Assembly: GCA_965367815.1 (NCBI GenBank)
Contig: CBDUKN010000021.1
Span: 1-44,182 of the forward strand
From: an uncultured Thermoprotei archaeon
GTDB lineage: Archaea; Thermoproteota; Thermoprotei; Thermofilales; B15-G2
Length of the DNA stretch: 44,182 bases
Reading direction: 5' to 3'
Notes under the pieces: generated by a model
The model's database searches: none
What the model saw: the letters and a program-made list of their open reading frames with translations, nothing else
Told to the model about the DNA's origin: nothing
Position numbers and translations under genes: made by a program
Shown here: in pieces, positions 5,301 through 44,182 of the stretch
Position numbering within the stretch: the stretch's first letter is position 1
Layout: every line of letters starts with the position of its first letter

Positions 5301-5946
5301 ACGAACTAGTACCACTATCAATTATAACACTAAGGCTTCTTCACGAAGACATCTGGGTAATCATACTACTAGCAATAATACACTTCGCTCACACCACTAT
5401 CACAAAAGAATATAAACACCTATTGAGCCACTGCAACATAGTACTCACTTAATAGAACATGCCAAGGATTTTCTGCAATACTCCTCCTCAACAAAACTTC
5501 TGCAAGACTTAAGTAGCAAAGCTACTGAAACTCCCTAAGGTACTGGTATAGGTGTCATAAATCAGAGTACTAGCACGGCTGCGCGATAAAAAGCACTATA
5601 ATAGCTAAGTACTCCCACGACATATTCTTCTCCTTAAACTCATTACTCACACAGTCGCCGAGAAAAATAGACAATTGAATCATTTAAGTATAGTGCCTCT
5701 AGTCTTCTTCAAGTTCTTTTTCAATTTTCTGTGCTAGTTCTCTGTAGTAGCCTAGTGCTTCCTCAAGCTCCCTGTGCTCTTTAACTAAGTCTTCTAGCAC
5801 TGCGACAAGCTCTTTTACTTCAGCTAAAGCATTTCTCAAAGAATCTTCTCTACTAACTCCCTTAGCTTCCTCAAAATACTCTTAAATTTTCTCGGTAAAT
5901 AGACTACAAGATAGTATATCGTTAAACATATTTACTCTGAGAAATA

Positions 5947-6123
5947 AAATTATTTAGATGAACTAGAGCAAGCCTAGGCTTGCTCTAGGGAAACAGACCG
6001 ATGGCGAGGGATGAAGCTTATAGGGTTTCCCAAGCTAGTCTACGAAAGGGAGGCCCCGAAATGTTTAGTTTCTTTACCTCTTCTCTCATCCCCCGCTACC
6101 GTTTCTTCTGGAGCGATGGGGGT
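5947..6123 (+). ncRNA. conserved structured leader / left-end RNA or ssDNA element (copy 1)
   Basis: aligns with 39891-40067; three stems with compensatory changes. Confidence 0.7.
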
Positions 6124-6127
6124 GTCT

Positions 6128-7591
6128 ATGGGGCGGGGAGAGTTTGTTGAGATAATAAGAAGTAATGTTTTGAGAATTGAGGCTAGTAGTGAAGTAGAGG
6201 AGTTGTTGAAGAGTCTTCAAAGAGGGTTTAAGAAGTACTTTGATGTAGCGAATAATTTCATTAAACAGTATTATCGAATAAATCACAGGCTTCCGAGGCA
6301 AATAGATGTTTATAGGATTCTCAGGGAATATGGTGTATCTAGTACTGCTGCTAACGAGGTTTCAAAAAAGGTTCTTGAGGCATGGAAAAGCTACTTTGAG
6401 CTTGAGAAAAGAGGATTTAAGGCTAAGCCACCAATATTTAGGAATATTCCAGTGATTCTTCATAATCAGCAGTACAGGGTTTACGCTAGGGGAAAGGACA
6501 ATGAGTGGATTGCTGAGAAAATTGAGTTTTCTTTAAACGGGAAATGGGTTTCACTTAAAGTTAAAGGGAAGCTTAGGTGGATTCCGAGGCTCAATGAAGG
6601 ACTAGTGTTTTATATTAGTGGATTAAAGTGCCCTAGTATAAAGTTAAGATATTGTTTAATAGAAAATTACTTAGTTTTAGGAGAGAGATGTCTTAGTAAA
6701 AATAAGGCAGAGATTTTTCAGCAAAACAATAAGTGGTATTTTGTTTTCAGTGTTTCTTTGAAGATTCCATTGCTGATGCTGAAAGGAAGTGGTGTAGTAG
6801 GGATTGATGTTGGTGTAAGGAATCTTGTAGCGCTGGTCGGAGTCAGTAATAGTGGCGAGGCTTTTTCAATGCTTTTTAAAAGCGGTACTCTTAGAGCTTA
6901 CTGGCTTAAATGTGAGAAGCTTGCAAGAAGAAGGCAAAAGATTGCTTATCGGTATTTCTGGAGAGCGGTACATTGTGCTGAAAACGGTGATAGGGAGAAG
7001 GAAAGAGAATGTTTTTGGGAATATAGGAGGTTTTTGGAGAAAGCTGGACGGTTTAAGAGGAAAGCTAGAGAAGTAAGGAAGAAGGCTGTTAACCAGATGG
7101 CTAAACTGGTAGCAGAGTACTTGGCTTCTAGAGGTGTTTCGGTTGTTTATGTTGGTAATAGTGTTTGTAGAGCTGTTTCTGATGTAGATTTAATTGAAAG
7201 AATAGTATCAAAGCCTACTAAAGAGCTTCTTAGAGGATTCTTTGCTCCAAGACAGATTATTAAGGCTCTTCAGAGGCACTGTGAGGTTAGAGGAATTAGA
7301 GTAATTGAGATTGATGAAATGGGGACTTCTAGTGTTTGTCCAGTATGTGAGAGTAGGGTTGAGAGGAGGTATCGTGGACTAGTTGTTTGTAGAGAACACG
7401 GATGCTTTAATGCTGACTTAGTGGCAGCGTTCAATATTCTTAAAAGAAATACTAGTGTAGAGCTGAGGAAAGAAGATTTGAAGGAATTACTTAATTATCC
7501 TAAGACATATGTTTACTTAGTTAAAGAACAGAAGTGGGTTGAAAGAAAATATTTAGTTTCTTTACCTCCCGAAAGGGAGATACCTCACTAG
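6128..7591 (+). CDS. tnpB: TnpB RNA-guided endonuclease with rearranged RuvC-II (487 aa from ATG 6128)
   Basis: VVGIDVG (RuvC-I), YVGN, IDEMGTS, CPVC...RGLVVC-x2-H and NADLVAAFNI; GGGGTG RBS before 6128; the upstream in-frame extension runs through the structured leader. Confidence 0.9.
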   Translation: MGRGEFVEIIRSNVLRIEASSEVEELLKSLQRGFKKYFDVANNFIKQYYRINHRLPRQIDVYRILREYGVSSTAANEVSKKVLEAWKSYFELEKRGFKAKPPIFRNIPVILHNQQYRVYARGKDNEWIAEKIEFSLNGKWVSLKVKGKLRWIPRLNEGLVFYISGLKCPSIKLRYCLIENYLVLGERCLSKNKAEIFQQNNKWYFVFSVSLKIPLLMLKGSGVVGIDVGVRNLVALVGVSNSGEAFSMLFKSGTLRAYWLKCEKLARRRQKIAYRYFWRAVHCAENGDREKERECFWEYRRFLEKAGRFKRKAREVRKKAVNQMAKLVAEYLASRGVSVVYVGNSVCRAVSDVDLIERIVSKPTKELLRGFFAPRQIIKALQRHCEVRGIRVIEIDEMGTSSVCPVCESRVERRYRGLVVCREHGCFNADLVAAFNILKRNTSVELRKEDLKELLNYPKTYVYLVKEQKWVERKYLVSLPPEREIPH

Positions 7592-7668
7592 CCCCACATA
7601 GGGGTAACTTGCCTGACCCCCAGGCAGGCAATGAAAGGCCAGCTGGCCTAGAGCCGAAAGAGGGGTCC
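7561..7668 (+). ncRNA. putative omega-RNA scaffold / right end of element 1
   Basis: GC-rich hairpins; near-identical to 26882-26987 (minus) although the adjacent coding sequence has diverged. Confidence 0.75.
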
Positions 7669-7870
7669 TGAAGTCTGGATGACCATTAAATTCGCTATTT
7701 CAGCATAAGGCTTGTAAGCTAAGTCTAGCGTGACTTTTCCTAAGACTCTATCTTCCTCATCGATTGCTATTAAAACTTTAACATACTTTCTTGCTTTAAG
7801 CCAGTAGCCAACAAGTTTCTCTGAGAGTTTTCTCCGTATGCCTCGTATAGTTTAGTCATTTTACTAGCAT
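7667..7870 (-). pseudogene. N-terminal fragment of a GNAT acetyltransferase cut by the element 1 right end
   Basis: frameshifted reading gives KVLIAIDEEDRVLGKVTLDLAYKPYAEIANLMV-HPDFR, ending at the element boundary. Confidence 0.65.
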
Positions 7871-26883: not shown

Positions 26884-27175
26884 ACCCCCTCTTTCGGCTC
26901 TAGGCCAGCTGGCCTTTCATTGCCTGCCTGGGGGTCAGGCAAGTTACCCCTATGCGGGGCTAGTGGGGTATCTCCCTTTCGGGTAAAAAGTATTTAATTT
27001 AATTTTTAGGCACCCATTTCTGTTCTCTAATTAAGTAAACATATGTTGTAGGACTGTTAAGTAGGTTCTTTAATTCTTTTTCACTCAATTTAACATTAGT
27101 ATTTCCTCGTAAAATATTATATGCCGCTGCTAAATCCGCGTTAAAGCTTCCACATTTTTCGCACACAAAATAAGC
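26882..27175 (-). mobile_element. truncated TnpB element (C-terminal remnant 26999-27175 + omega-RNA 26882-26987)
   Basis: FVCEKCGSFNADLAAAYNILRGN...TYVYLIREQKWVPKN* is homologous to the end of TnpB1; RNA part near-identical to 7561-7668. Confidence 0.9.
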
Positions 27176-36174: not shown

Positions 36175-37137
36175 TTAATCTCTTAGCTCTCTTCTGGGCT
36201 TTTCTAGGCCTAGAGCTAGAGCAACTGCGCCGTAGAGCACTATATCTCCTCCTAGGGGAGTAGCTTTGATTTCAGGCGGCCTGTTAATAATATAGTCTTT
36301 TACGGCTTCCTGCAGAGGATCTATTATGTAATCCTTATTGTTTAAAGCAACACTACCTCCTACTGTTATTAGGCTGGGGTCATACATGTCAATTATGTTA
36401 GCAAAGCCTATGGCGTTGAACTTCTGTATTAGCTTAAGAGCTCTTAAAGCAAACTCGTCACCCTGCCTTACTGCATCAAAAAAGTCTTTGGCAGTGAAAT
36501 CTCCGCTTAGAACTGTTTCTTTGACACCCCACTCTTCTTTAAGTAGCTTAACGAAACGCGGAATACATCTGCCTGAACAATAGGCTTCCCAGTGTCCTCT
36601 TTTGCCGCAGCTACATTCTAGCTTGCCGTACGGATCTATTACTGTGTGTCCTGGTTCGCAGAAATTGCCGTCTTTTCCTAAAAGCAAGTACCCGTCGACA
36701 TATGCTCCTCCGCCAATACCAGTACTTATTGTCACGTATACTATATTGTCTTTGCCTTTACCTGCGCCAAAATGCTTTTCGCCTACAACGGCTGTAGTAC
36801 AGTCATTAAGCATTCTAACAGGCTTACCAAACTCTTTTTCAAGAGGCTCTACAATAGGTATTTCCTCAAAAGGAAGATTAGGTGTCTTCAGAATTACTCC
36901 TCTCCTTAAGTCAAGAGGCCCTATTGCTCCAACACCTATTCCTGCAACCTCTCTTAAATCAACTCCACTTTTAGTGAGAGCTTCTTTAATCATTCTAATA
37001 ATCTGAGCTGTAACATTCCATCCTGTGCCCTCATGGACAGTATGTTCACTTATTTTTACTAGAAATTCACCATTCTCATCAGCTACTACTACCCTAAGAT
37101 TTGTAGCGCCTAAATCAACGCCCACTGCATACATCAA
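36175..37137 (-). CDS. ROK family sugar kinase (glucokinase-like)
   Basis: GVDLGAT, NDC, STGIGGG and EPGH...CSCGKRGHWE motifs. Confidence 0.92.
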   Translation of the reverse strand: MMYAVGVDLGATNLRVVVADENGEFLVKISEHTVHEGTGWNVTAQIIRMIKEALTKSGVDLREVAGIGVGAIGPLDLRRGVILKTPNLPFEEIPIVEPLEKEFGKPVRMLNDCTTAVVGEKHFGAGKGKDNIVYVTISTGIGGGAYVDGYLLLGKDGNFCEPGHTVIDPYGKLECSCGKRGHWEAYCSGRCIPRFVKLLKEEWGVKETVLSGDFTAKDFFDAVRQGDEFALRALKLIQKFNAIGFANIIDMYDPSLITVGGSVALNNKDYIIDPLQEAVKDYIINRPPEIKATPLGGDIVLYGAVALALGLEKPRRELRD

Positions 37138-37307
37138 CCAAAATAACCAGATGTTCTAAAAATAACTTTGCTTTCATCTAAGTAGACCTACATACAGATC
37201 TTTCCATATTCTAGTTGAAAATATTGCAGGAGTAAATTACTAGAATCTCTGTCTGAAAATGAGCGAAAGCATGTACAGAGTCTAATAGACTCTGTTTTTA
37301 GGTGAAC

Positions 37308-37958
37308 TTAAGTAGATTTCTGTTTAATTTTCTTGCTTTTATTTTGTTTAAGATGATTTATACTCTCTTTTATTGCTATTTCAACTGCTTTCTGGCTTAA
37401 ATGTAGACACATGCTTGGAGCATTTTTCTCTACTGCCTGCTGCGGCGTGTAAGGTATATGAATGAATCCTGAAATAGTTTCTAGTTTATGTGTAGCTATT
37501 GTATGTAAGGAAATATACATTGCGCAGTTACAGAGAAATGTTCCAGCAAAATATGATAAGGCTGCCGGTATTCCCTCTTTTTTCAGTCTCTTCACTATTC
37601 TTCTAGTAGGTATTGTAGCGAAGTACGCCGCAGGCCCTCCTGGTACTATTGGCTCGTCTCTCGGCTTAAATCCATCTACATCTCCTTTCTCAGTGTCCAT
37701 GAGGTTTAACGCTACTCTCTCTACGTATACTTGATGAGAGCGAGGAGCTAGTCCTAGATGTATTGCTATGGTCGGCCTATGTTTAAGTAGTATTTCAGGC
37801 AGCTCTTTTATTACTCTTCTAAAAGATACTGGTAAAACAACTCCTATTACTCGATAGCCTTCTATTACGACATTATTTAGCTTTAAGGCTATTTCAGCTG
37901 AAGGATTATATTTCTCGCTTCCCCATAGACTAAAACCTGTTACAAGTACTTTCGTCAT
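37308..37958 (-). CDS. pcp: pyroglutamyl-peptidase I
   Basis: VLVTGF, NPS, VERVA, AGTFLCN and GFIHIP motifs. Confidence 0.93.
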   Translation of the reverse strand: MTKVLVTGFSLWGSEKYNPSAEIALKLNNVVIEGYRVIGVVLPVSFRRVIKELPEILLKHRPTIAIHLGLAPRSHQVYVERVALNLMDTEKGDVDGFKPRDEPIVPGGPAAYFATIPTRRIVKRLKKEGIPAALSYFAGTFLCNCAMYISLHTIATHKLETISGFIHIPYTPQQAVEKNAPSMCLHLSQKAVEIAIKESINHLKQNKSKKIKQKST

Positions 37959-38254
37959 GTAGCCTCAGCCCTATAGAGAAGTTCCCTGTACTCAGGGTGC
38001 TTGTCAATATAGTGTTTTGCAAAGGAGCACAGAGGATGTACTTTAAGGTTTATTGACTTAGCGTATTCTAAGACATGCTTCATTAATGTTGAAGCTATTC
38101 CACGTCCTCTCAGCTCAGGCGGAGTATATGTTTCCATAATCATTAAAACTCCGCGTCCTCTGTGAATATAGTACTTGAGGAACGCTTTTTTGCCTTCTAG
38201 CTCAATATAGAATTCTCCTCCATCTCCGCTTACACTATGATTTACTTGATACAC
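37955..38254 (-). CDS. small GNAT acetyltransferase (YjdJ-like)
   Basis: TPPELRGRGIA and PLCSF motifs. Confidence 0.85.
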   Translation of the reverse strand: MYQVNHSVSGDGGEFYIELEGKKAFLKYYIHRGRGVLMIMETYTPPELRGRGIASTLMKHVLEYAKSINLKVHPLCSFAKHYIDKHPEYRELLYRAEAT

Positions 38255-38341
38255 TACAGTAGCCCCACTGACTAGTATATAACACTACTCTATTAATTAC
38301 AGTGTAGGAAAACTTATTTTACGGTCTACGTTGTAGGCTAC

Positions 38342-38614
38342 GTGAAGAGAATACATGCTTATGTAAGCGGAATTGTTCAGGGTGTAGGATTCCGGTACTT
38401 TGTTTACCGCCACGCTAAAATGCTAGGACTTAAAGGATTTGTACGAAATCTGCCTGACGGTAGAGTAGAAGTAGTAGCTGAAGGAGAAGAAGAAAACTTA
38501 CGTAGACTAGTATCGCTTTTATGGCAAGGACCTGTAGGAGCATATGTTAAAAACGTTGAAGTAGAGTGGAGCGAAGCAAAAAATGAGTACAGCGACTTCG
38601 AGATAATATGGTAA
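38342..38614 (+). CDS. acyP: acylphosphatase
   Basis: VSGIVQGVGFR and GFVRNLPDGRVE motifs. Confidence 0.95.
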   Translation: MKRIHAYVSGIVQGVGFRYFVYRHAKMLGLKGFVRNLPDGRVEVVAEGEEENLRRLVSLLWQGPVGAYVKNVEVEWSEAKNEYSDFEIIW

Positions 38615-38619
38615 ATAAA

Positions 38620-38674
38620 TCAGTTAGCCGCCACCTCATCACTACTCAGCATCGGAGTTGTCTTAGTTCATCAT
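38620..38674 (-). ncRNA. box C/D sRNA
   Basis: minus strand reads ATGATGA-actaagacaactccgatg-CTGA-gta-GTGATGA-ggtggcggctaa-CTGA. Confidence 0.85.
38650..38660 (+). repeat. 11-bp direct repeat CATCGGAGTTG (also at 41806-41816)
   Basis: exact match; both copies are followed by an antisense box C (TCATCA). Confidence 0.8.
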
Positions 38675-39446
38675 CTTAAGTTCTCTGCTATATTTATGTT
38701 AGTCTCTTAAATTTACTAACCATGAAGATATATATGTTTAGTAGATTTAAGAAAATAAAACAAAAATATTTCTATCCAGACAAATTTGATACTTTATTTG
38801 ACTTAACTATTTTATGTTTAAGCTGTGTTCGGATAAATATCTGAATGTTTTTAGTAGAAGTTGAATATTTTTTCAAAAATATTTTGAAAACATACTAGAA
38901 AAACTATGGAATAAATACATTCACTTAAATCGCGTAGATCATTTTGTAGAAAAACATAGTCAGAGTGATTTAATAAAAAATAGGTGTGCTATTATCGTGT
39001 TTCAAAACTAAAATAATGATTCTATTACAATATTTTTCAAATAATTCTCTCTAGGAAATAACATTTAATTGGTCTTGGCGAGAAATATTGCGTGGATATT
39101 TTAGCAGAGTGAAGTTACTAGTATTTTTAAAAATAATTATAATGGTTTATTTATTTTATAGTCTAGCACTTAAAGAATGTGACTGATAAATTCAATATAT
39201 TTTAAGGAGTTTATTTTAAAAATGTAGGAGGCTTAGTCTGTGAAGAGTGAGCGTATTTGATTCCATATGCTTATTTTGGGTTCTTCTATCCACCATCCGC
39301 CTATAACAGTAAGTATTCCGTGAAACGAGTCCACGATAACTCTTCTCGCTTGATACCTGCGGTTTTCGAGTTCAATTGATTAAAGATTAGTAGAAAATAC
39401 TGCTTTGTGCAAAATTCTGATATAGAATATATGCTAAAATATCGTG

Positions 39447-39870
39447 ATGAGAAAAAGAACTCTACTCCATTATTAGAGAAAAGTTCGAAGAACTCTTTAA
39501 ACTGAAAGGTTTTAAGGAAGTATATCTTGAAGAAACTCATACTGGAAAATTCAGCAATAAACTTAAAGAAAAATACCTGATTACATGCACATAGTATTTG
39601 TTTTTCTCAATGAAATAGCACCAGATATAACAGGCTTTGTTGAAAAGAGTACCAGGGATTTACTTCAACAGAATTTGTTGTAATTGAAGTCAAAACAAGA
39701 AAATAAAACTTGACCACATATACCAGGTCAAAAAGTACGCCGAACTACTTAATGCAACCTATGCATTTCTAGTATCAACAGAGAAAATACCAGTAGAAAT
39801 AAAAAGGCTATGTAAAAAAGTTTACTCGATCTTCTTGGCAAATGGACTACAAGAGAGTACACAATAAAGT
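39447..39870 (+). pseudogene. PD-(D/E)XK restriction-like nuclease, multiply frameshifted
   Basis: joined frames give EKELY...IAPDITGF...VVIEVK...IYQVKKYAELL. Confidence 0.65.
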
Positions 39871-39890
39871 ATTTATTTTTGATAATATAT

Positions 39891-40238
39891 AAATTATTTA
39901 GATGAACCGAGGGTAGCTGAGCTATCCTCGGGGAAACAGACCAATGTAAGGGATGAAGCTTATAGGGCTTCCCTAGCCTGTCGAGTAAAAGGGAGGCCCC
40001 GAAATGTTTATTTTCTTTACTTCTCCTCTCATCCCCCGCTACCGTGTTTTTCTGGAGCGATGGGGGATGGGAGGAGAGGAGCCCCGCGACCAAAATGAGC
40101 GGGGACTAGGGGAAACGGCTATAGCCGAATGCTCCCCTGCTCCTAAGGCATTTAGCTGATGAAGGGGTGATTCCGGGGGCCTTACAGTACACAAGTATAC
40201 AGTGTACGGTGCGCTGGGGGTCGTCACGGGGGTTTAGT
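39891..40238 (+). ncRNA. structured leader RNA (copy 2 of shared leader plus extra module)
   Basis: GC-rich stems in AT-rich context; 39891-40067 homologous to 5947-6123. Confidence 0.7.
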
Positions 40239-40339
40239 AAACAGTGTTCATTGATGTTTAGCCTATATACCGATATTTGATTGACTATATTGGTTTATTG
40301 TATGCAGTGTTTTTGAGTAATGTTTCAGAGGTACTAGAG

Positions 40340-40440
40340 CTCTCTGGGGGAGTGGAGCTTTCTCCCAGGGCTCCCGCCACCGTTTCTTTTGGGGCGATGG
40401 GGGCTCTGGGGGAGGCGATGAAACTCCCCCAGAGAGGTGA
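40340..40440 (+). promoter_or_regulatory. 5'-UTR hairpin with K-turn overlapping the Shine-Dalgarno GAGGTGA
   Basis: 14-bp stem 40340-40353/40423-40436; GGA-GC / GC-GAT-GAA K-turn pattern; SD at 40434-40440. Confidence 0.65.
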
Positions 40441-40444
40441 AAAT

Positions 40445-41629
40445 ATGAAAAAAGAAGTATTTGCAGCTTTTAGATTTAGAGTAAAGGTAAGAAAAGAGGA
40501 GGCGAGGAAGATATACGAGGTAATGAAAAGGTACCGAGAGAATATTAAGAAAATTAAGGTTCTAGTGAAGCTTCTGACAAAGCAGGGTTATAGCGAAGAA
40601 GAAGCGCTTAGGATTGCTGTTCAACGCTATAGGATGAAGAATTTGATTATACGTAATAGAGAGAAGTTGGTTGAAGCGTATATTAAGTCGAAGTGTTATC
40701 GAGCGGATTCATTAATTCTATTTAACAGATATGGCTACAAGTATACCTGCTATATAGGTTTGAAAAACAAGGCTTTCCTTAGAATTGGAGGCGAAATTAA
40801 CACATGGCTCCCAGTAAAGAGAAGCATATTCAAAGCTGTTAAGAAGAGGGAAGAGTGGGGCTGGAAACCAGTATTCATTATACTGAAGTTTCTTGGCTTT
40901 AGTAAGAGGAATGGATTATTTGAAGTCGCTTTGATATTCAAGGTTCCAGCGAAGAAGATTTCTTTAAGTGATGTTAAGAGTGCGTTAAGTGAGAATAGGC
41001 TTTCGGTAATTAGTATTGATATTAATGCTATTCATGGTACTTATACTGGTTTATTTAGAGTTCAGGGTAGTGAATTGAAGTTAATTAATGTTAGAAAAAC
41101 TAATACTAGCTGGCGTCTAGTGGAAAGACATATTGAAAGAATTTCAGAGCTTAAGAGTAAGCTTAGGAAGAAAGGATTGTCTCCAAGAGAGTTCAGAGAA
41201 CTAAGGCAACTTGAAAGAAGGATAAGAAACCTTATTCAGTATCCTAAGAGAAAGGGTCTCGGAGTTCTAAGAGAATTGATTAGGAGAGAACAGAAATTAG
41301 GTAGGGTTGTGGTTATTGCAGTAGAGAATATTGATAAAAGGGATATTGAAAAAATGTACAACAATACTAGTAGTGTTAATAGGGCTATTCACTTATTTAT
41401 GCAGGGATGGTTTAAGAAAGTAAAGTTCTTAGCTAGAATAGAGGGGGCGTTCTTCATGGTTGTCGATAAAAGTTGTTCTTCGAAACAGTGCCCAGTATGC
41501 GGTAAATTAATGAAGTTTATTGACAATAGATGGCTTTACTGTAGTCAATGTAGTAAAAGTTATCATAGAGACTTAGCTGCTTTGAGAAATTTAGCGAAAA
41601 GAGCATTAGAGAAAATAAAGGAAACATAA
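40445..41629 (+). CDS. tnpB: TnpB / Cas12f-like RNA-guided endonuclease (394 aa from ATG 40445)
   Basis: ISIDIN, IAVENI, SSKQCPVC...CSQC and HRDLAALRNL: D-E-D triad plus Zn finger; GAGGTGA RBS. Confidence 0.85.
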   Translation: MKKEVFAAFRFRVKVRKEEARKIYEVMKRYRENIKKIKVLVKLLTKQGYSEEEALRIAVQRYRMKNLIIRNREKLVEAYIKSKCYRADSLILFNRYGYKYTCYIGLKNKAFLRIGGEINTWLPVKRSIFKAVKKREEWGWKPVFIILKFLGFSKRNGLFEVALIFKVPAKKISLSDVKSALSENRLSVISIDINAIHGTYTGLFRVQGSELKLINVRKTNTSWRLVERHIERISELKSKLRKKGLSPREFRELRQLERRIRNLIQYPKRKGLGVLRELIRREQKLGRVVVIAVENIDKRDIEKMYNNTSSVNRAIHLFMQGWFKKVKFLARIEGAFFMVVDKSCSSKQCPVCGKLMKFIDNRWLYCSQCSKSYHRDLAALRNLAKRALEKIKET

Positions 41630-41634
41630 GACTT

Positions 41635-41805
41635 TTTACCTTAAAGAGCCTTCTAGGGACAATTGTCCCTAGAAGGGACGATATCTAGTCAGAACTGACC
41701 CCGTGACGACCCCCAGCCCCCGCGATGAAGGCGGGTGCTCCTCCTCTCGATTAGGGGGAGATGACCCCCTTAAAGGAGCTCCGCCCAACACGCGGGGAAA
41801 CAGAA
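41635..41805 (+). ncRNA. putative omega-RNA / right end of element 2
   Basis: 28-bp palindrome 41649-41676; nested stems CCCCGCG/CGCGGGG and GGCGG/CCGCC; GATGA motifs. Confidence 0.65.
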
Positions 41806-41824
41806 CATCGGAGTTGATCATCAC
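41806..41824 (-). pseudogene. orphan 5' half of a box C/D sRNA
   Basis: minus strand GTGATGA + 12-nt guide TCAACTCCGATG, with D' replaced by the element end. Confidence 0.55.
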
Positions 41825-41862
41825 TCAATTTCAAATATACGTTCTAACAAATTAGTATTTAA

Positions 41863-42378
41863 TTATAGTTTTTCTAGTCTTTTTCGCATCTCTAAGTATA
41901 CTTCAGTAGACAGCCTAAATCCACTTACTACAAGTCTATTTAGCAGCTCTAATGCTTTTGTCGATGAAATAAGTCCTTTTCTTACAGCCATGGTAATAAT
42001 GTATAAAGTACCATGAACTTCAATACCCAGCATACGCGCAGCGATCCGCCCTAGTTTGTCGTCAATAATTACATGGCAAGGCTTGTAGGCTAAAGCTAAC
42101 GCTAAAACTTCTGCCTCTCCTCTATCAAGACACGGAAAAAGACGTAGTATACGCTCGACTTCTCGAGAAGAAACCTCTAAAATAGATAATTGTCTACTAT
42201 CAACAGCTTTCTTTACGGCTATAGCGTCTTTGAATCCTTTTTCTAAGCCTTTAATTACAACCTCTCTATACACTTCTAGTGGAATGAGTACCTCTGTGTA
42301 AATGGATAAAAGAAGATTTAGGGCACAGGCTTTCGCTAAATAAATCAGAGGAGAAGAGTTAACTACTGCTCTCTTCAC
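41863..42378 (-). CDS. DUF3368 PIN-domain protein
   Basis: VVNSSPLI, LDRGEAE, IIDD and HGTL motifs. Confidence 0.9.
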   Translation of the reverse strand: MKRAVVNSSPLIYLAKACALNLLLSIYTEVLIPLEVYREVVIKGLEKGFKDAIAVKKAVDSRQLSILEVSSREVERILRLFPCLDRGEAEVLALALAYKPCHVIIDDKLGRIAARMLGIEVHGTLYIITMAVRKGLISSTKALELLNRLVVSGFRLSTEVYLEMRKRLEKL

Positions 42379-42673
42379 TTAAAGCCGCCTCAAAGTCTTC
42401 TTTAAGATCTCTTAGAGTATACTGAATAGTTACTCCATACTTTTCAAGCATATCTACTAACTCCCATAGACTAACACCAGCCAACCGTGCCGCTTTCCAG
42501 AGCGTAACTTTACCTTCAGAGTATAACTTTAAGGCAATCTTAATTTTTCGTTCTCTAACTCCTTCTTCAAGTATTTCTCTAATCACCTCTGCTTTATCTC
42601 TTCCCTCAAGTTCAGCTAGTTCCTCTAACTCTTTCCTAATTTTCTTTGGTACCCTAACAGACAGCACTTCCAT
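42359..42673 (-). CDS. UPF0175 family antitoxin with N-terminal RHH
   Basis: LSVRVPK and YSEGKVTLWKAARLAGVS motifs. Confidence 0.9.
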   Translation of the reverse strand: MEVLSVRVPKKIRKELEELAELEGRDKAEVIREILEEGVRERKIKIALKLYSEGKVTLWKAARLAGVSLWELVDMLEKYGVTIQYTLRDLKEDFEAALSEESSS

Positions 42674-42774
42674 TAATGTCTCCTTGTATACGAGTGTATA
42701 CTAGTATTTAAACTCATTTCACTGAAATACCAACGCAGTCGAGCTGGTCGCTTTTTACACTAAGAGGCTCCTTA

Positions 42775-43212
42775 TTAAGCTCTTTTAGTAGCTACTTTGC
42801 TTTGAAGAGACTCCTCTAATGCTTTCTTAATTGATATATAAGCTGGTATTAGAAAGAAGAGTGCTGGAAGTAAGAAAAGCCATATTCCTGTCGAGTGGAA
42901 GCCAAAGAAACATAATCCTGGTATCAGGCACATTATACCGAATACTTGAGAAAGAAACAGTTCATAATTCTTTTTAGCAACAAGTAAACTATGTAAGGTA
43001 CCGCGAATCCTACTATAAACAGCGGCGAATATACAGTAGCAGGAAAATCCTGCAAAGGATGCGAAAACGCAGATTATGCATATAACTATGCTATTCCAGT
43101 ATATTCTCCTTTCATGAAAATCAATTCTTTTTCTAACAATATATATTTTTCTTAATAACTTTAAGTAAGTGGGTCTCTGCCCTTTCAAAATTTTTAGCTG
43201 AACATACTTCAA
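42775..43212 (-). CDS. hypothetical membrane protein (possibly frameshifted)
   Basis: hydrophobic segments; start uncertain. Confidence 0.4.
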   Translation of the reverse strand: MKYVQLKILKGQRPTYLKLLRKIYIVRKRIDFHERRIYWNSIVICIICVFASFAGFSCYCIFAAVYSRIRGTLHSLLVAKKNYELFLSQVFGIMCLIPGLCFFGFHSTGIWLFLLPALFFLIPAYISIKKALEESLQSKVATKRA

Positions 43213-43752
43213 TAACTATTTTAAGTTTGCTGAAGACTTTACTTAAAAATACACTTAATTTTTATAATTCCTTATTGTCTGAAAAATTCTTTTGTCCTCA
43301 AATAGCTTGTACGGCTATTAACTCCCTTAAACACAACCTTAGCAATATTAAATAGCTTTAATATATCTACTTAATTTTTATCAATATCTTTATAGAACAT
43401 GCTATTACCTTATGTAATATTTTTAGCTATATTAGCTAATTATATATTTATGAATATATTTTAATTAACTAAAAAATATAGGAAGTTCATTAAAATTCAT
43501 TATATCTAACTACTGCAAGAAAATGTAACTCTACCATTAGAAATTTTTTGTACAAATACAAAATATAAAATATTAACTTAGTGCTTTAAAAATCAAACAA
43601 AACGTTCTTTTGACCCTTACCTTTAGTATCTAAAACTATTATTCATAAACTAGCGCATGCCAATTATTAAAATTAGTCTAGTACAAATGTACTTCAAGAT
43701 TAAATTATAAATAAAAACTATAGTAAATGTTTTCCACAGCTTGCTTGTGTAA

Positions 43753-44061
43753 TTAAAGGTTTAACTCTTTTTTAATTATTTCAAGTACTAAGTAAGCAAT
43801 ATCTCTATCTGCTATAATAAATATCTCATTATCTCCTCTTCTGTACATCACTATAGCCTTACCCTCTTTTGTTTCTAGAATAATCTTAGATGCTTTTACT
43901 TTCTTAAAATAATCGTGAAGTTTGTATGCTATCTTAGTGGTACTAGGATCACCGCCTTCAATTATTTTCCTGTGTTTGCTAATAATAGCTAAGTAGGACA
44001 AATTATATCTTCTTAAAATAGCTTTTGTTTTATTTATTTTACTACTATTTATATTAATCAT
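43753..44061 (-). CDS. hypothetical protein, possibly Roadblock/LC7-like
   Basis: 102 aa, helix-beta2-helix-beta3-helix pattern (IILETKEGKAIV). Confidence 0.45.
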   Translation of the reverse strand: MININSSKINKTKAILRRYNLSYLAIISKHRKIIEGGDPSTTKIAYKLHDYFKKVKASKIILETKEGKAIVMYRRGDNEIFIIADRDIAYLVLEIIKKELNL

Positions 44062-44182
44062 ACTATCACTTTAAGAATGATTTAAAGAATGCGGTCAAAA
44101 ATAAGACTACTCTGGATATATTTTTATTCTGCATGTTGTGTATCCTGTTGCCCAGCAGTGTGTTTCTATTGCGTGGTGTTGT

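Follow-up and report, generated by a model that had tools for sequence, protein, structure and literature searches.

How a small guide RNA gene comes to be split by about 3 kb of TnpB-bearing DNA, with a complete set of boxes still in place on one side, is the question raised by a locus of an uncultured vent archaeon of the Thermofilales (B15-G2). The window, that is, the whole stretch of DNA analysed here, covers 44,182 nucleotides of contig CBDUKN010000021.1. Its first-pass annotation described a box C/D sRNA gene interrupted by an island that re-supplied the displaced box C, and likened the event to integration at att sites in tRNA genes. The insertion held up in our analysis and the likeness to att sites did not.

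The sRNA gene and the repeat pair

Archaeal box C/D sRNAs carry the boxes C (RUGAUGA), D' (CUGA), C' and D in this order on one strand. All four were found in order on the minus strand at 38620-38674. Read along the plus strand, the gene consists of TCAG (38620-38623, antisense of box D), the 12-nt D guide (38624-38635), TCATCAC (38636-38642, C'), TAC (38643-38645), TCAG (38646-38649, D'), CATCGGAGTTG (38650-38660), TCTTAGT (38661-38667) and TCATCAT (38668-38674, box C). On the minus strand this gives ATGATGA-18nt-CTGA-GTA-GTGATGA-12nt-CTGA, with a D' spacer (38650-38667) of 18 nt against a norm of ~12 nt, and a D spacer of 12 nt. Its box C lies within the island, in agreement with the annotation.

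Besides the directly read boxes, the gene assignment draws on a regular expression census of the genome, on an orthologue in a genome of the same genus (G001) and on Rfam matches below threshold. At gathering score, Rfam had no match anywhere in the window. In E-value mode, ten C/D-box families matched 38617-38678 (minus strand), all below their own cut-offs; the best was snoPyro_CD (31.4 bits, cut-off 45; E 6.7e-4), whose alignment has an insertion of 6 nt within the D' spacer. These scores are to be read with the make-up of the models, which are single sRNA families from other genera and also leave the G001 orthologue below gathering (34.3 vs 40). The census returned ten loci with four perfect boxes, six of them with 12/12 spacers; the occupied locus has 18/12. 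The assembly contained no rRNA genes. Against the rRNAs of genomes from two other families of the order (G004 and G005), the best pairings of the sRNA guides, 9-11 of 12 positions including G-U, were no better than expected, and no convincing target site was found in them.

The annotation had also pointed to a direct repeat, and its two copies were confirmed as a pair unique in the genome: CATCGGAGTTG occurs at 38650-38660 and again at 41806-41816, where it is followed by A (41817) and an orphan antisense box C, TCATCAC (41818-41824). With up to one mismatch, the window had these two matches (shuffle mean 0.21; 2 of 100 shuffles reached two), and no third place was found on either strand of the 2.45-Mb genome. 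Four further exact 11-nt direct repeats (D15-D18) lie within the same 3.9 kb. By itself the 11-bp repeat is weak evidence; what gives it weight is where it lies, together with the empty sites. A metagenome contig (L023) provided an independent assembly of the island, 99.2% identical over 3975 nt. Its base at 38661 is an A, so that the left copy there extends to 12 bp (38650-38661) and makes up the entire D' spacer.

Island-free alleles

To the left of the sRNA gene, and convergent with it, lies acyP (acylphosphatase, 38342-38614, plus strand; PF00708, E 6.7e-31). Its orthologue in G001 also adjoins the sRNA, which there reads ATGATGA-12-CTGA-GTA-GTGATGT-12-CTGA. The G001 flank past box C is homologous to the window from 41817 onward (score 38 vs a shuffle mean of 16.7, reached by 0 of 500 shuffles), and not to the left end of the island (score reached by 234 of 500 shuffles). 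Metagenome contigs from three of the four vent runs (X2, X3 and X4) join 38649 directly to 41806, skipping 3156 bases with 11 shared letters. On their short side these contigs have at most 92 letters, and the identity of their flanks to the window is 98.5%. In the empty allele the sRNA has the textbook 12/12 form, with one copy of the repeat and a box C continuous with the rest of the gene, just what the annotation had obtained on paper by removing the block and one repeat.

The orphan box C (GTGATGA, 41818-41824, minus strand) is thus the original one. Behind it, 41825-41896 represents the original upstream flank or promoter of the sRNA, with a conserved TAAATACTAAT on the minus strand, as indicated by the G001 homology and the empty-site contigs. 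The latter follow the window as far as 41896 and then diverge. The right neighbours outside the island, a DUF3368 (PIN-like) gene and a UPF0175/RHH gene (41863-42673, minus strand), are missing here both from the empty-site strain and from G001. The annotation had looked to an adjacency of acyP and the DUF3368 gene, which was not found: agreement of the empty-site strain with the window ends at 41896, and in G001 other genes lie at this place. This is immaterial, because the part shared is the promoter flank of 80-90 bp. The annotation had further named, as the case that would speak against insertion, relatives free of the island with an 18-nt spacer. There were none; G001 and the empty allele have 12 nt.

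Across 120 genomes of the class, the sRNA was detected in two only, both with the resident arrangement. Together, the G001 site and the empty joints identify the 3156-bp block as an insertion that is polymorphic between strains, in a box C/D sRNA gene specific to the genus.

Occupied and empty alleles co-occurred in the vent metagenomes.

Make-up of the island

The island is a mosaic and not a single integrative element. It starts with AT-rich non-coding DNA (38661-39379, GC 0.24-0.32) that has no other copy in the genome and is unrelated to the resident flank. The first 14 nt supply 6-7 extra spacer bases and the new box C, and a TATA-like TAAATTTAA, recognized by eye, is located ~32 nt upstream of this box on the minus strand. 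On the plus strand there follows a pseudogene (39380-39864), a PD-(D/E)xK-like gene broken up over three frames, whose IPDY... and VIEVKT motifs were assigned by eye from the frame translations; it had one weak relative among the 120 class genomes. Next come the first ~17 codons of a gene that we call gene X (39813-39870, minus strand), where homology to full copies stops, and the GC-rich structured 5' region of the TnpB element (39886-40444, plus strand), with hairpins at ~40019-40080 and 40340-40436. The first ~180 nt of this region are common to a TnpB1-type element at window positions 5886-6122.

Homology to the related elements L025, L026 and C6 begins at ~39813-39828, inside gene X, which means that the left part of the TnpB element is missing. 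The left 1.15 kb of the island is single copy in the genome, and by comparison with the other copies its left end is not an element end. The exact left-end pattern was absent from the genome contigs searched, and an sRNA of the form RTGATGA-ACTAAG-N6-CTGA was found in none of the 120 genomes.

In a list of open reading frames of at least 40 aa, only tnpB and a 114-aa frame reached 80 aa within the block; the latter runs from the gene X remnant back across the 5' RNA region. No integrase of at least 80 aa was listed inside the block (frames of 36500-44182, with Pfam run on tnpB only), in line with the annotation, which had seen none. Between the window and L023, tnpB differed by one SNP in 1185 nt and SNP clusters fell in the non-coding parts. 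Six SNPs with a period of three separate the two island haplotypes at 39750-39768.

The TnpB element and its right end

The right 2 kb of the island is a left-truncated, transposase-less TnpB element with an IS200/IS605-like layout. Its tnpB gene (40445-41629, plus strand) encodes an intact protein of 394 aa (PF07282, 38 bits vs a cut-off of 26.3). The RuvC residues D192, E294 and D376 and the zinc-finger cysteines C349, C352, C366 and C369 are invariant in four copies, and judged by these residues and by the single SNP against L023 the protein looks active. The NCBIfam TnpB models remained far below their cut-offs (21.9 bits vs 425 and 27.7 vs 350; NF038281 and NF038280, IS200- and IS607-type).

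Behind the gene lies the omega-RNA (reRNA) scaffold (41630-41805, plus strand), which forms the right end of the element. Its minimum free energy had a z-score of -4.64. In four copies (window, C15, L024 and L025) it shows 37 consensus pairs, 14 of them compensatory, and the flanks diverge right after GAAACAGA[AT], where conservation stops. The genome has two solo right ends that break off at this point, C17 with the same motif and C2 with the variant GACTCAGGA. The right edge of the island is therefore the exact right end of the TnpB element, and it abuts the sRNA gene at the junction of antisense box D' (TCAG) and the 12-nt D' guide.

By analogy with ISDra2, the predicted omega-RNA guide is the sequence directly 3' of the scaffold (41806-41825, plus strand); it is antisense to the D' guide and box C of the sRNA and takes in the right repeat copy. 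This predicted guide, CAUCGGAGUUGAUCAUC, perfectly matches the island-free allele beside TCAG. The left copy in the occupied allele matches it at only 11 positions in the window, or 12 in L023.

A Y1 transposase (TnpA, PF01797) had no match in this 99.4%-complete genome, the control being positive in 6 of 14 known genomes. The single serine recombinase of the genome is not adjacent to a tnpB. Five tyrosine-recombinase genes were found elsewhere in the genome.

Other copies and relatives

None of the five other copies of the element repeats at least 10 nt of its right flank upstream; judging by these copies, the 11/12-bp repeat is not a transposition footprint. Upstream alignments of 5-6 copies gave no common left boundary or TAM, and no allele with a simple insertion, in which TCAG would be followed directly by the left end of the element, was seen. 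The C15 copy offered no usable empty site, since its synteny with G001 ends ~830 nt past the right end.

Relatives of the window TnpB family (family-2) were present at four loci in metagenome contigs and in none of the genome contigs, viral contigs, plasmids or phages searched. Within the same order, three other genomes of 41 had only distant partial matches.

X3 and X4 contain a further right end, a diverged one, with 2 nt, 12 nt, TCATCAC, TGCC and TCAG after it. It abuts, in antisense, another C/D sRNA broken at the equivalent place, and is known from 30 consensus letters. TCAG sites followed by N12-TCATCAY make up 33 of the 17,496 in the genome; with a random choice of TCAG sites, the probability of at least two of seven ends falling on them is ~7e-5, a figure that treats as independent seven right ends that are not independent samples. 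For the TnpB1-type elements (seven copies, six right flanks aligned), none of the six flanks looked like an sRNA.

Elsewhere, gene X is a divergently transcribed companion beside these TnpB elements. It had no Pfam or NCBIfam family above cut-off, with one copy giving a sub-threshold Cass2 match (20.1 bits vs 27), and Foldseek returned nothing at E ≤ 0.001. VIA-align gave only RNase H-like/RuvC/YqgF-type matches (Z 6-7.5, middling for this tool), and the alignment had no obvious conserved acidic triad. Gene X was considered as the missing recombinase and rejected, as neither the family and structure searches nor the alignment gave support.

Origin of the arrangement

We consider it on balance probable that a TnpB element entered the sRNA gene first, and that a rearrangement on its left side then added foreign DNA with a new box C. 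Elements of the TnpB kind land 3' of a TAM without target duplication. Here, insertion would have taken place at TCAG, the candidate TAM suggested by two junctions, severing the D' guide, box C and promoter from the sRNA. A second event on the left side of the element, by recombination or faulty repair, would have removed the left end of the element itself and put ~1.15 kb of AT-rich DNA of foreign origin there. This DNA opens with the 12-nt guide a second time, followed by six additional bases and a new box C with the TATA-like stretch upstream. The variant with the rebuilt sRNA would be the one that persisted. Because the new DNA starts exactly with the 12-nt guide and has a box C 6 nt further on (chance ~0.001), selection or a donor sRNA gene is needed; no donor sRNA or nuclease locus was found in the 120 class genomes or the genome contigs. 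Restoration of the sRNA is seen in the sequence only. For ISDra2 TnpB, the guide is reported to comprise ~16 nt of 3' flank, the TAM to precede the target on its 5' side and the cut to fall 15-21 bp away from the TAM, with homing at the donor joint (PMC8612924); TnpB is further reported to need ~12 TAM-proximal base pairs (PMC10097598). By analogy with this mechanism, the nuclease should cut empty alleles, favouring copying or retention of the island.

The reading nearest to the annotation takes the whole block for a decayed integrative element, which recombined site-specifically between an attP and the sRNA gene over a 12-bp core and whose integrase was lost or acted in trans. The element's own box C and promoter would have repaired the gene, as elements integrating into tRNA genes do. 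The exact 11/12-bp direct repeats at both borders, with one copy in the empty allele, the low chance of a box C so near the border and the tyrosine-recombinase genes elsewhere in the genome fit such an event, and associations of TnpB with tyrosine recombinases are reported (PMC10691335). We regard it as unlikely, since the repeat core abuts the last base of the omega-RNA scaffold, a coincidence of ~1 in 3000 positions that it does not predict, none of the five other copies carries a repeat of its right flank and the left border is no element end. The identity is only 12 bp, the displaced and replacing parts are not homologous, the block has no frame of at least 80 aa except tnpB and the 114-aa frame, and it is a mosaic with a truncated element and a pseudogene. 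Short direct repeats can also mediate deletion, and exact 11-nt repeats are common in this AT-rich stretch, so that the occupied state might be old and the island-free alleles precise deletions between the repeats. Alternatively, the whole structure might be an assembly artefact. Both are very improbable: the outgroup species G001 is empty with a homologous flank, the empty allele is a textbook 12/12 sRNA, and the island was assembled independently in L023 and in pieces in X2.

The left side may instead have been made by the nuclease itself, in one faulty homing event. TnpB would have cut the empty allele 15-21 bp from TCAG; the TAM-side end, keeping ~12 target bases, would have gained filler DNA, then invaded the element of an occupied allele, sister or homologous, and been extended by copying through the element's right end. 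Such a cleavage scar would jointly explain the start of the repeat after TCAG, a repeat no longer than the cleavage distance and the exact adjacency at the right end, along with the left truncation and the lack of repeats at other copies; the geometry and the 12-bp requirement are taken from PMC8612924 and PMC10097598. We hold this course to be improbable, as it is purely inferential, a box C within filler still requires selection or a donor sRNA gene, and the 12 bp may just mirror the spacer length of the sRNA. A related organism in which a longer-spacer sRNA is naturally followed by AT-rich DNA, the gene of the nuclease and a TnpB element with gene X could also have been the source: homologous exchange, within the sRNA at the left and within the element at the right, would have transferred that stretch to an allele already bearing the element. 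In favour of this third lineage, the island has a box C (ATGATGA) of the same kind as G001, the six period-3 SNPs suggest exchange with a functional homologue, and composite sRNAs formed by rearrangement are described in Pyrobaculum (PMC6009581). It is distinctly unlikely, given that both class genomes with the sRNA have the resident arrangement, that neither a donor-like sRNA nor a nuclease locus was found, and that the flank upstream of the island box C is unrelated to both known flanks. The order of events that we favour remains an element first and a left-side rearrangement second.

Comparison with known systems

We compared the element with IS200/IS605 TnpB systems that have an omega-RNA/reRNA at the right end, such as ISDra2 (Karvelis 2021, PMC8612924; Nakagawa 2023, PMC10097598; Meers 2023). 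As in these, the island TnpB combines a zinc finger with a RuvC D-E-D triad, a structured RNA overlaps and trails the 3' end of the gene, and scaffold conservation ends where the flank (guide) starts. The predicted guide matches the unoccupied allele, and at the five other copies no flank repeat was seen. Unlike these systems, it has no Y1 TnpA in the genome and does not come near the NCBIfam family cut-offs; the element is accompanied by a long GC-rich 5' region and the divergent gene X, and at this locus it lacks its left part and lies within a larger block that has the 12-bp repeat at its borders.

The hit on a small structural RNA gene, the border repeats and the supply of the displaced gene end by the inserted DNA all recall integration at tRNA genes. 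Integrative elements that use tRNA genes as att sites, for example the archaeal SSV- and pNOB8-type, restore the gene. The island differs from them in having no integrase, an identity of only 12 bp and a transposon end as one border; its replacement part does not duplicate the displaced one, and the resulting spacer is 6 nt too long.

In Pyrobaculum, composite, transposed and MITE-like C/D box sRNA genes are described (Lui et al. 2018, PMC6009581). The rebuilt gene shares with the composites of that study the assembly from parts of different origin, the modular exchange of a guide-plus-box half and the plasticity of the gene. Different from the cases described there, the new half arrived with a TnpB-bearing block, the old half persists as an orphan at a distance of 3.1 kb, and the two alleles occur side by side in natural samples. 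Our literature searches returned no report of a TnpB element within a C/D sRNA gene, and gave TCAG, searched for as a TnpB TAM, only as an IStron terminus in a review.

Significance

The locus offers a natural pair of occupied and empty alleles for an archaeal TnpB, with a predicted guide matching the empty allele, which is the substrate required by the TnpB homing model. The locus also shows that mobile DNA can split a methylation-guide RNA gene, which is then rebuilt with foreign parts, a concrete way in which the 'composite' sRNAs of comparative studies can arise.

It is conceivable, though doubtful, that elements of this archaeal TnpB family land preferentially in C/D sRNA genes, with the antisense box D/D' (TCAG) as TAM, and that the 12-bp repeat is the scar of a TnpB-cut empty allele that was misrepaired. 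If so, two RNA-guided systems would share the same 12 bp on opposite strands, and the omega-RNA guide, antisense to the sRNA, would be the sequence of the sRNA's own RNA target. Homing would then have produced an island with cargo together with a chimeric sRNA that can still be used. Should elements indeed land repeatedly at box D/guide junctions, a target rule would follow, TAM = antisense box D, linking two unrelated RNA-guided machineries.

Structure of the sRNA gene and its repeat

Read on the plus strand, positions 38620-38674 consist of TCAG, 12 nt, TCATCAC, TAC, TCAG, CATCGGAGTTG, TCTTAGT and TCATCAT; the minus strand is a complete box C/D sRNA, ATGATGA-18 nt-CTGA-GTA-GTGATGA-12 nt-CTGA. 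The sRNA ends 6 nt from the stop codon of acyP (PF00708), with which it is convergent. A second copy of CATCGGAGTTG lies at 41806-41816, followed by an A and by TCATCAC, an antisense box C. Direct reading thus bore out the first-pass annotation on two points: the repeat occupies the D' guide of the minus-strand sRNA and recurs before an orphan box C, and the D' spacer of the present sRNA is over-long at 18 nt. The 11-mer occurs twice in the whole 2.45-Mb assembly, both times here. Four other exact 11-nt direct repeats were present in the same 3.9 kb, and two matches at ≤1 mismatch appeared in 2 of 100 shuffles. An exact 11-nt repeat by itself is little proof; the position of the copies is what counts. 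In the metagenome contig L023, base 38661 is an A, which extends the repeat to 12 bp, CATCGGAGTTGA, exactly the D' spacer. The 11-12 guide bases adjoining box D' are kept unchanged in the occupied allele. The N+5 rule sets the guided nucleotide, which would therefore stay the same.

Rfam gave no match at the gathering score. In E-value mode, 10 C/D families matched 38617-38678 on the minus strand, the top alignment (snoPyro_CD) scoring 31.4 bits where the cut-off is 45, and requiring 6 nt to be inserted in the D' spacer. Ten loci in the genome have four perfect boxes; six of them have 12/12 spacers, and 18/12 is found at the present locus only. The sRNA was present in 2 of 120 genomes of the class and is genus-specific.

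Empty and occupied alleles

Among 41 genomes of the order, a nucleotide search recovered the acyP-sRNA stretch from G001 alone, the other species of the genus, with 74% identity and a match ending at window base 38660. Past acyP, the minus strand of G001 reads ATGATGA-GCAACCTCGATT-CTGA-GTA-GTGATGT-GGTGGCGGCTAT-CTGA. Its flank past box C aligned to the window from 41817 onward (score 38, shuffle mean 16.7, reached by 0 of 500 shuffles), including a conserved TAAATACTAAT ~30 nt upstream of box C. The same flank gave no alignment with the left end of the island, 234 of 500 shuffles being equally good.

Four metagenome runs from vents or sediments supplied Logan contigs, which were placed on 38000-42500; the runs share year and habitat, may belong to one campaign, and one may be the window's own source. 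In three of them (X2, X3 and X4), a contig joined 38649 to 41806, skipping 3156 bases, with 11 letters fitting both sides and a short side of 19, 41 and 92 letters, respectively. The joint was not found in the fourth run, X5. Over 650 flank positions, the empty-site contigs showed 10 differences from the window, indicating another strain of the same species, and X2 also held pieces of the island at 99-100% identity. The island is complete, at 99.2% identity, in the independently assembled JGI contig L023, which rules out an assembly chimera. The empty site proposed in the first-pass annotation thus exists, both in G001 and in the metagenomes, and the sRNA gene carries an insertion polymorphism. 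A secondary deletion or an artefact is very improbable as its source, opposed as it is by G001 and L023.

To the right of the sRNA promoter, a DUF3368 (PIN-like) and UPF0175/RHH gene pair (41863-42673) is strain-specific. The empty-site strain departs from the window at 41896, and G001 has at this place a rhomboid-like gene, whose homologue in the window's genome lies on contig C1 near 236 kb.

Make-up of the inserted block

From left to right, the block comprises AT-rich non-coding DNA (38661-39379, GC 0.24-0.32), a PD-(D/E)xK-like gene in pieces that spread over three frames (39380-39864, motifs recognized by eye), the first ~17 codons of a gene here called gene X (39813-39870, minus strand), and the TnpB element proper (39886-41805). 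The latter starts with a structured, GC-rich 5' region, continues with an intact tnpB of 394 aa and ends in a 3' RNA of 176 nt. Gene X is full-length beside TnpB elements of this kind, and divergently transcribed from their 5' side, in the metagenome contigs L025 and L026 and in contig C27 of the same genome, and homology of the island to these copies begins only at the gene X remnant. Sequence comparison thus shows the block as a mosaic, with a TnpB element truncated on the left. Between the window and L023, tnpB had one SNP in 1185 nt. At 39750-39768, in the supposed pseudogene, there were six SNPs at 3-nt spacing, a pattern that looks like a stretch copied in from a homologue whose coding function is under constraint.

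Gene X encodes ~210-230 aa (L026:333-965(-), L025:298-978(-), C27:1311-1958(+)), with remnants in the window at ~39813-39870(-) and ~5882-5910. A large protein search returned six homologues only. No copy passed a Pfam or NCBIfam cut-off, with one sub-threshold match to Cass2. In an AF2 model (pLDDT 80.8), the N-terminal ~125 aa gave middling matches to RNase H-like/RuvC/YqgF folds (Z 6-7.5).

A second TnpB family (487 aa, PF07282 and PF01385) has ~7 copies, at 5886-7680 of the window (element 1) and on contigs C8, C26, C5, C7, C4 and C27, plus a fragment at 26963-27166 of the window. GAAAG(A)GGGGTC closes its right ends, and the flanks past it bear no relation to each other. Element 1 shares the first ~180 nt of its 5' region with the element of the island.

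The right end of the element

The tnpB product matched PF07282 above the cut-off, with the D-E-D triad and four cysteines invariant. The 3' RNA folds better than 200 of 200 shuffles (z -4.64), and double changes among four copies (window, C15, L024 and L025) keep 14 of 37 consensus pairs. In these copies conservation ends at GAAACAGA[AT], past which the flanks are unrelated. Two solo right ends of the genome, lacking tnpB, stop at the same place, C17:16751-16590(-) in the GAAACAGA motif and C2:143490-143650(+) in the variant GACTCAGGA. The shared stop point identifies 41805/41806 as the true right end of a transposon, so that the predicted omega-RNA guide starts with the repeat copy at 41806.

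All seven right ends read CAG, two variable bases and C, the C always being the first base past the scaffold (41797-41806 in the window). Read antisense, the window's right end has CUGU, a box-D-like word, two bases past the orphan guide. A perfect 19-nt inverted repeat (40213-40231/41699-41717), also present in L023, L025 and L026, links the 5' region to the omega-RNA.

Another copy of the same right end, diverged at 4 positions over 41698-41803, was present in X3 and X4; past it come GA, 12 nt, TCATCAC, TGCC and TCAG. These 30 letters, from which this second junction is known, read as another C/D sRNA, antisense, with the break exactly a guide's length ahead of box C'. Together with the locus in the window, this places 2 of the 7 known right ends at such a junction. 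TCAG sites with N12-TCATCAY behind them number 33 of 17,496 in the genome; random TCAG use would give at least two of seven with P ~7e-5; the ends behind this figure are small in number and related, and some stem from other organisms. Repeated landing at TCAG/guide junctions is a lead, not a result.

Origin of the occupied allele

In the most probable history, the element landed 3' of the TCAG that is the antisense of box D', so that the D' guide, box C and promoter were severed from the remainder of the sRNA. Its own left end may then have been swapped out, in a coupled or subsequent event on the left side, for foreign DNA whose first bases repeat the 12-nt guide and which offers a box C six bases on. 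The chance of a box C at that spot is ~0.001, suggesting that selection kept a rare sRNA-rebuilding variant or that another sRNA gene was the source of the DNA. A donor was sought without success in the 120 class genomes and the genome contigs.

The first-pass annotation had likened the insertion to att sites in tRNA genes and had seen no integrase. The latter holds, the ORF list showing no frame of integrase size in the block. The analogy is not supported: the right border is the right end of the TnpB element, no element end lies at the left border, and none of the five other family copies repeats ≥10 nt of its right flank upstream. An att-type element whose recombinase has since been lost is thus unlikely. 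It would also leave unexplained why the core touches the last omega-RNA scaffold base, and the flank of the replacing box C is unrelated to the displaced one. The five copies further suggest that this TnpB family makes no target duplications; a review states the same expectation for elements like IS200/IS605 or IS607. A plain IS200/IS605 history has gaps as well: a Y1 TnpA was not found in the genome, its sole serine recombinase is unlinked to any tnpB, and the TnpB lies far below the NCBIfam family cut-offs.

A scar of faulty homing would explain in a single step the repeat and the filler, the element's missing left part and the position of the repeat directly at the right end, and we consider it about as doubtful as the att-type element. 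Somewhat less probable still is an exchange with a third lineage having the long-spacer arrangement natively.

The predicted omega-RNA guide, CAUCGGAGUUGAUCAUC, matches the empty allele beside TCAG. For ISDra2, the guide is described as ~16 nt of flank, with the TAM 5' of the target and a cut at the vacated donor site 15-21 bp from the TAM (PMC8612924), and ~12 TAM-proximal pairs are reported as decisive for TnpB (PMC10097598). On these grounds TnpB should cut island-free alleles, which, by analogy, would bias inheritance towards the island. In L023 the guide matches the left copy of the occupied allele at 12 positions, in the window at 11; we speculate that the window's T at guide position 12 is an escape change.

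The components are of known kinds, a TnpB/omega-RNA element and an archaeal C/D sRNA. Rebuilding of sRNA genes from modules is described in Pyrobaculum (PMC6009581), and association of TnpBs with several kinds of transposase has been reported (PMC10691335). In our literature search we met no published case of a C/D sRNA gene harbouring a TnpB element, or of such an element leaving a rebuilt sRNA behind. The value of the locus lies in a natural pair of occupied and empty alleles, and in the testable idea of a link between TCAG and box D.
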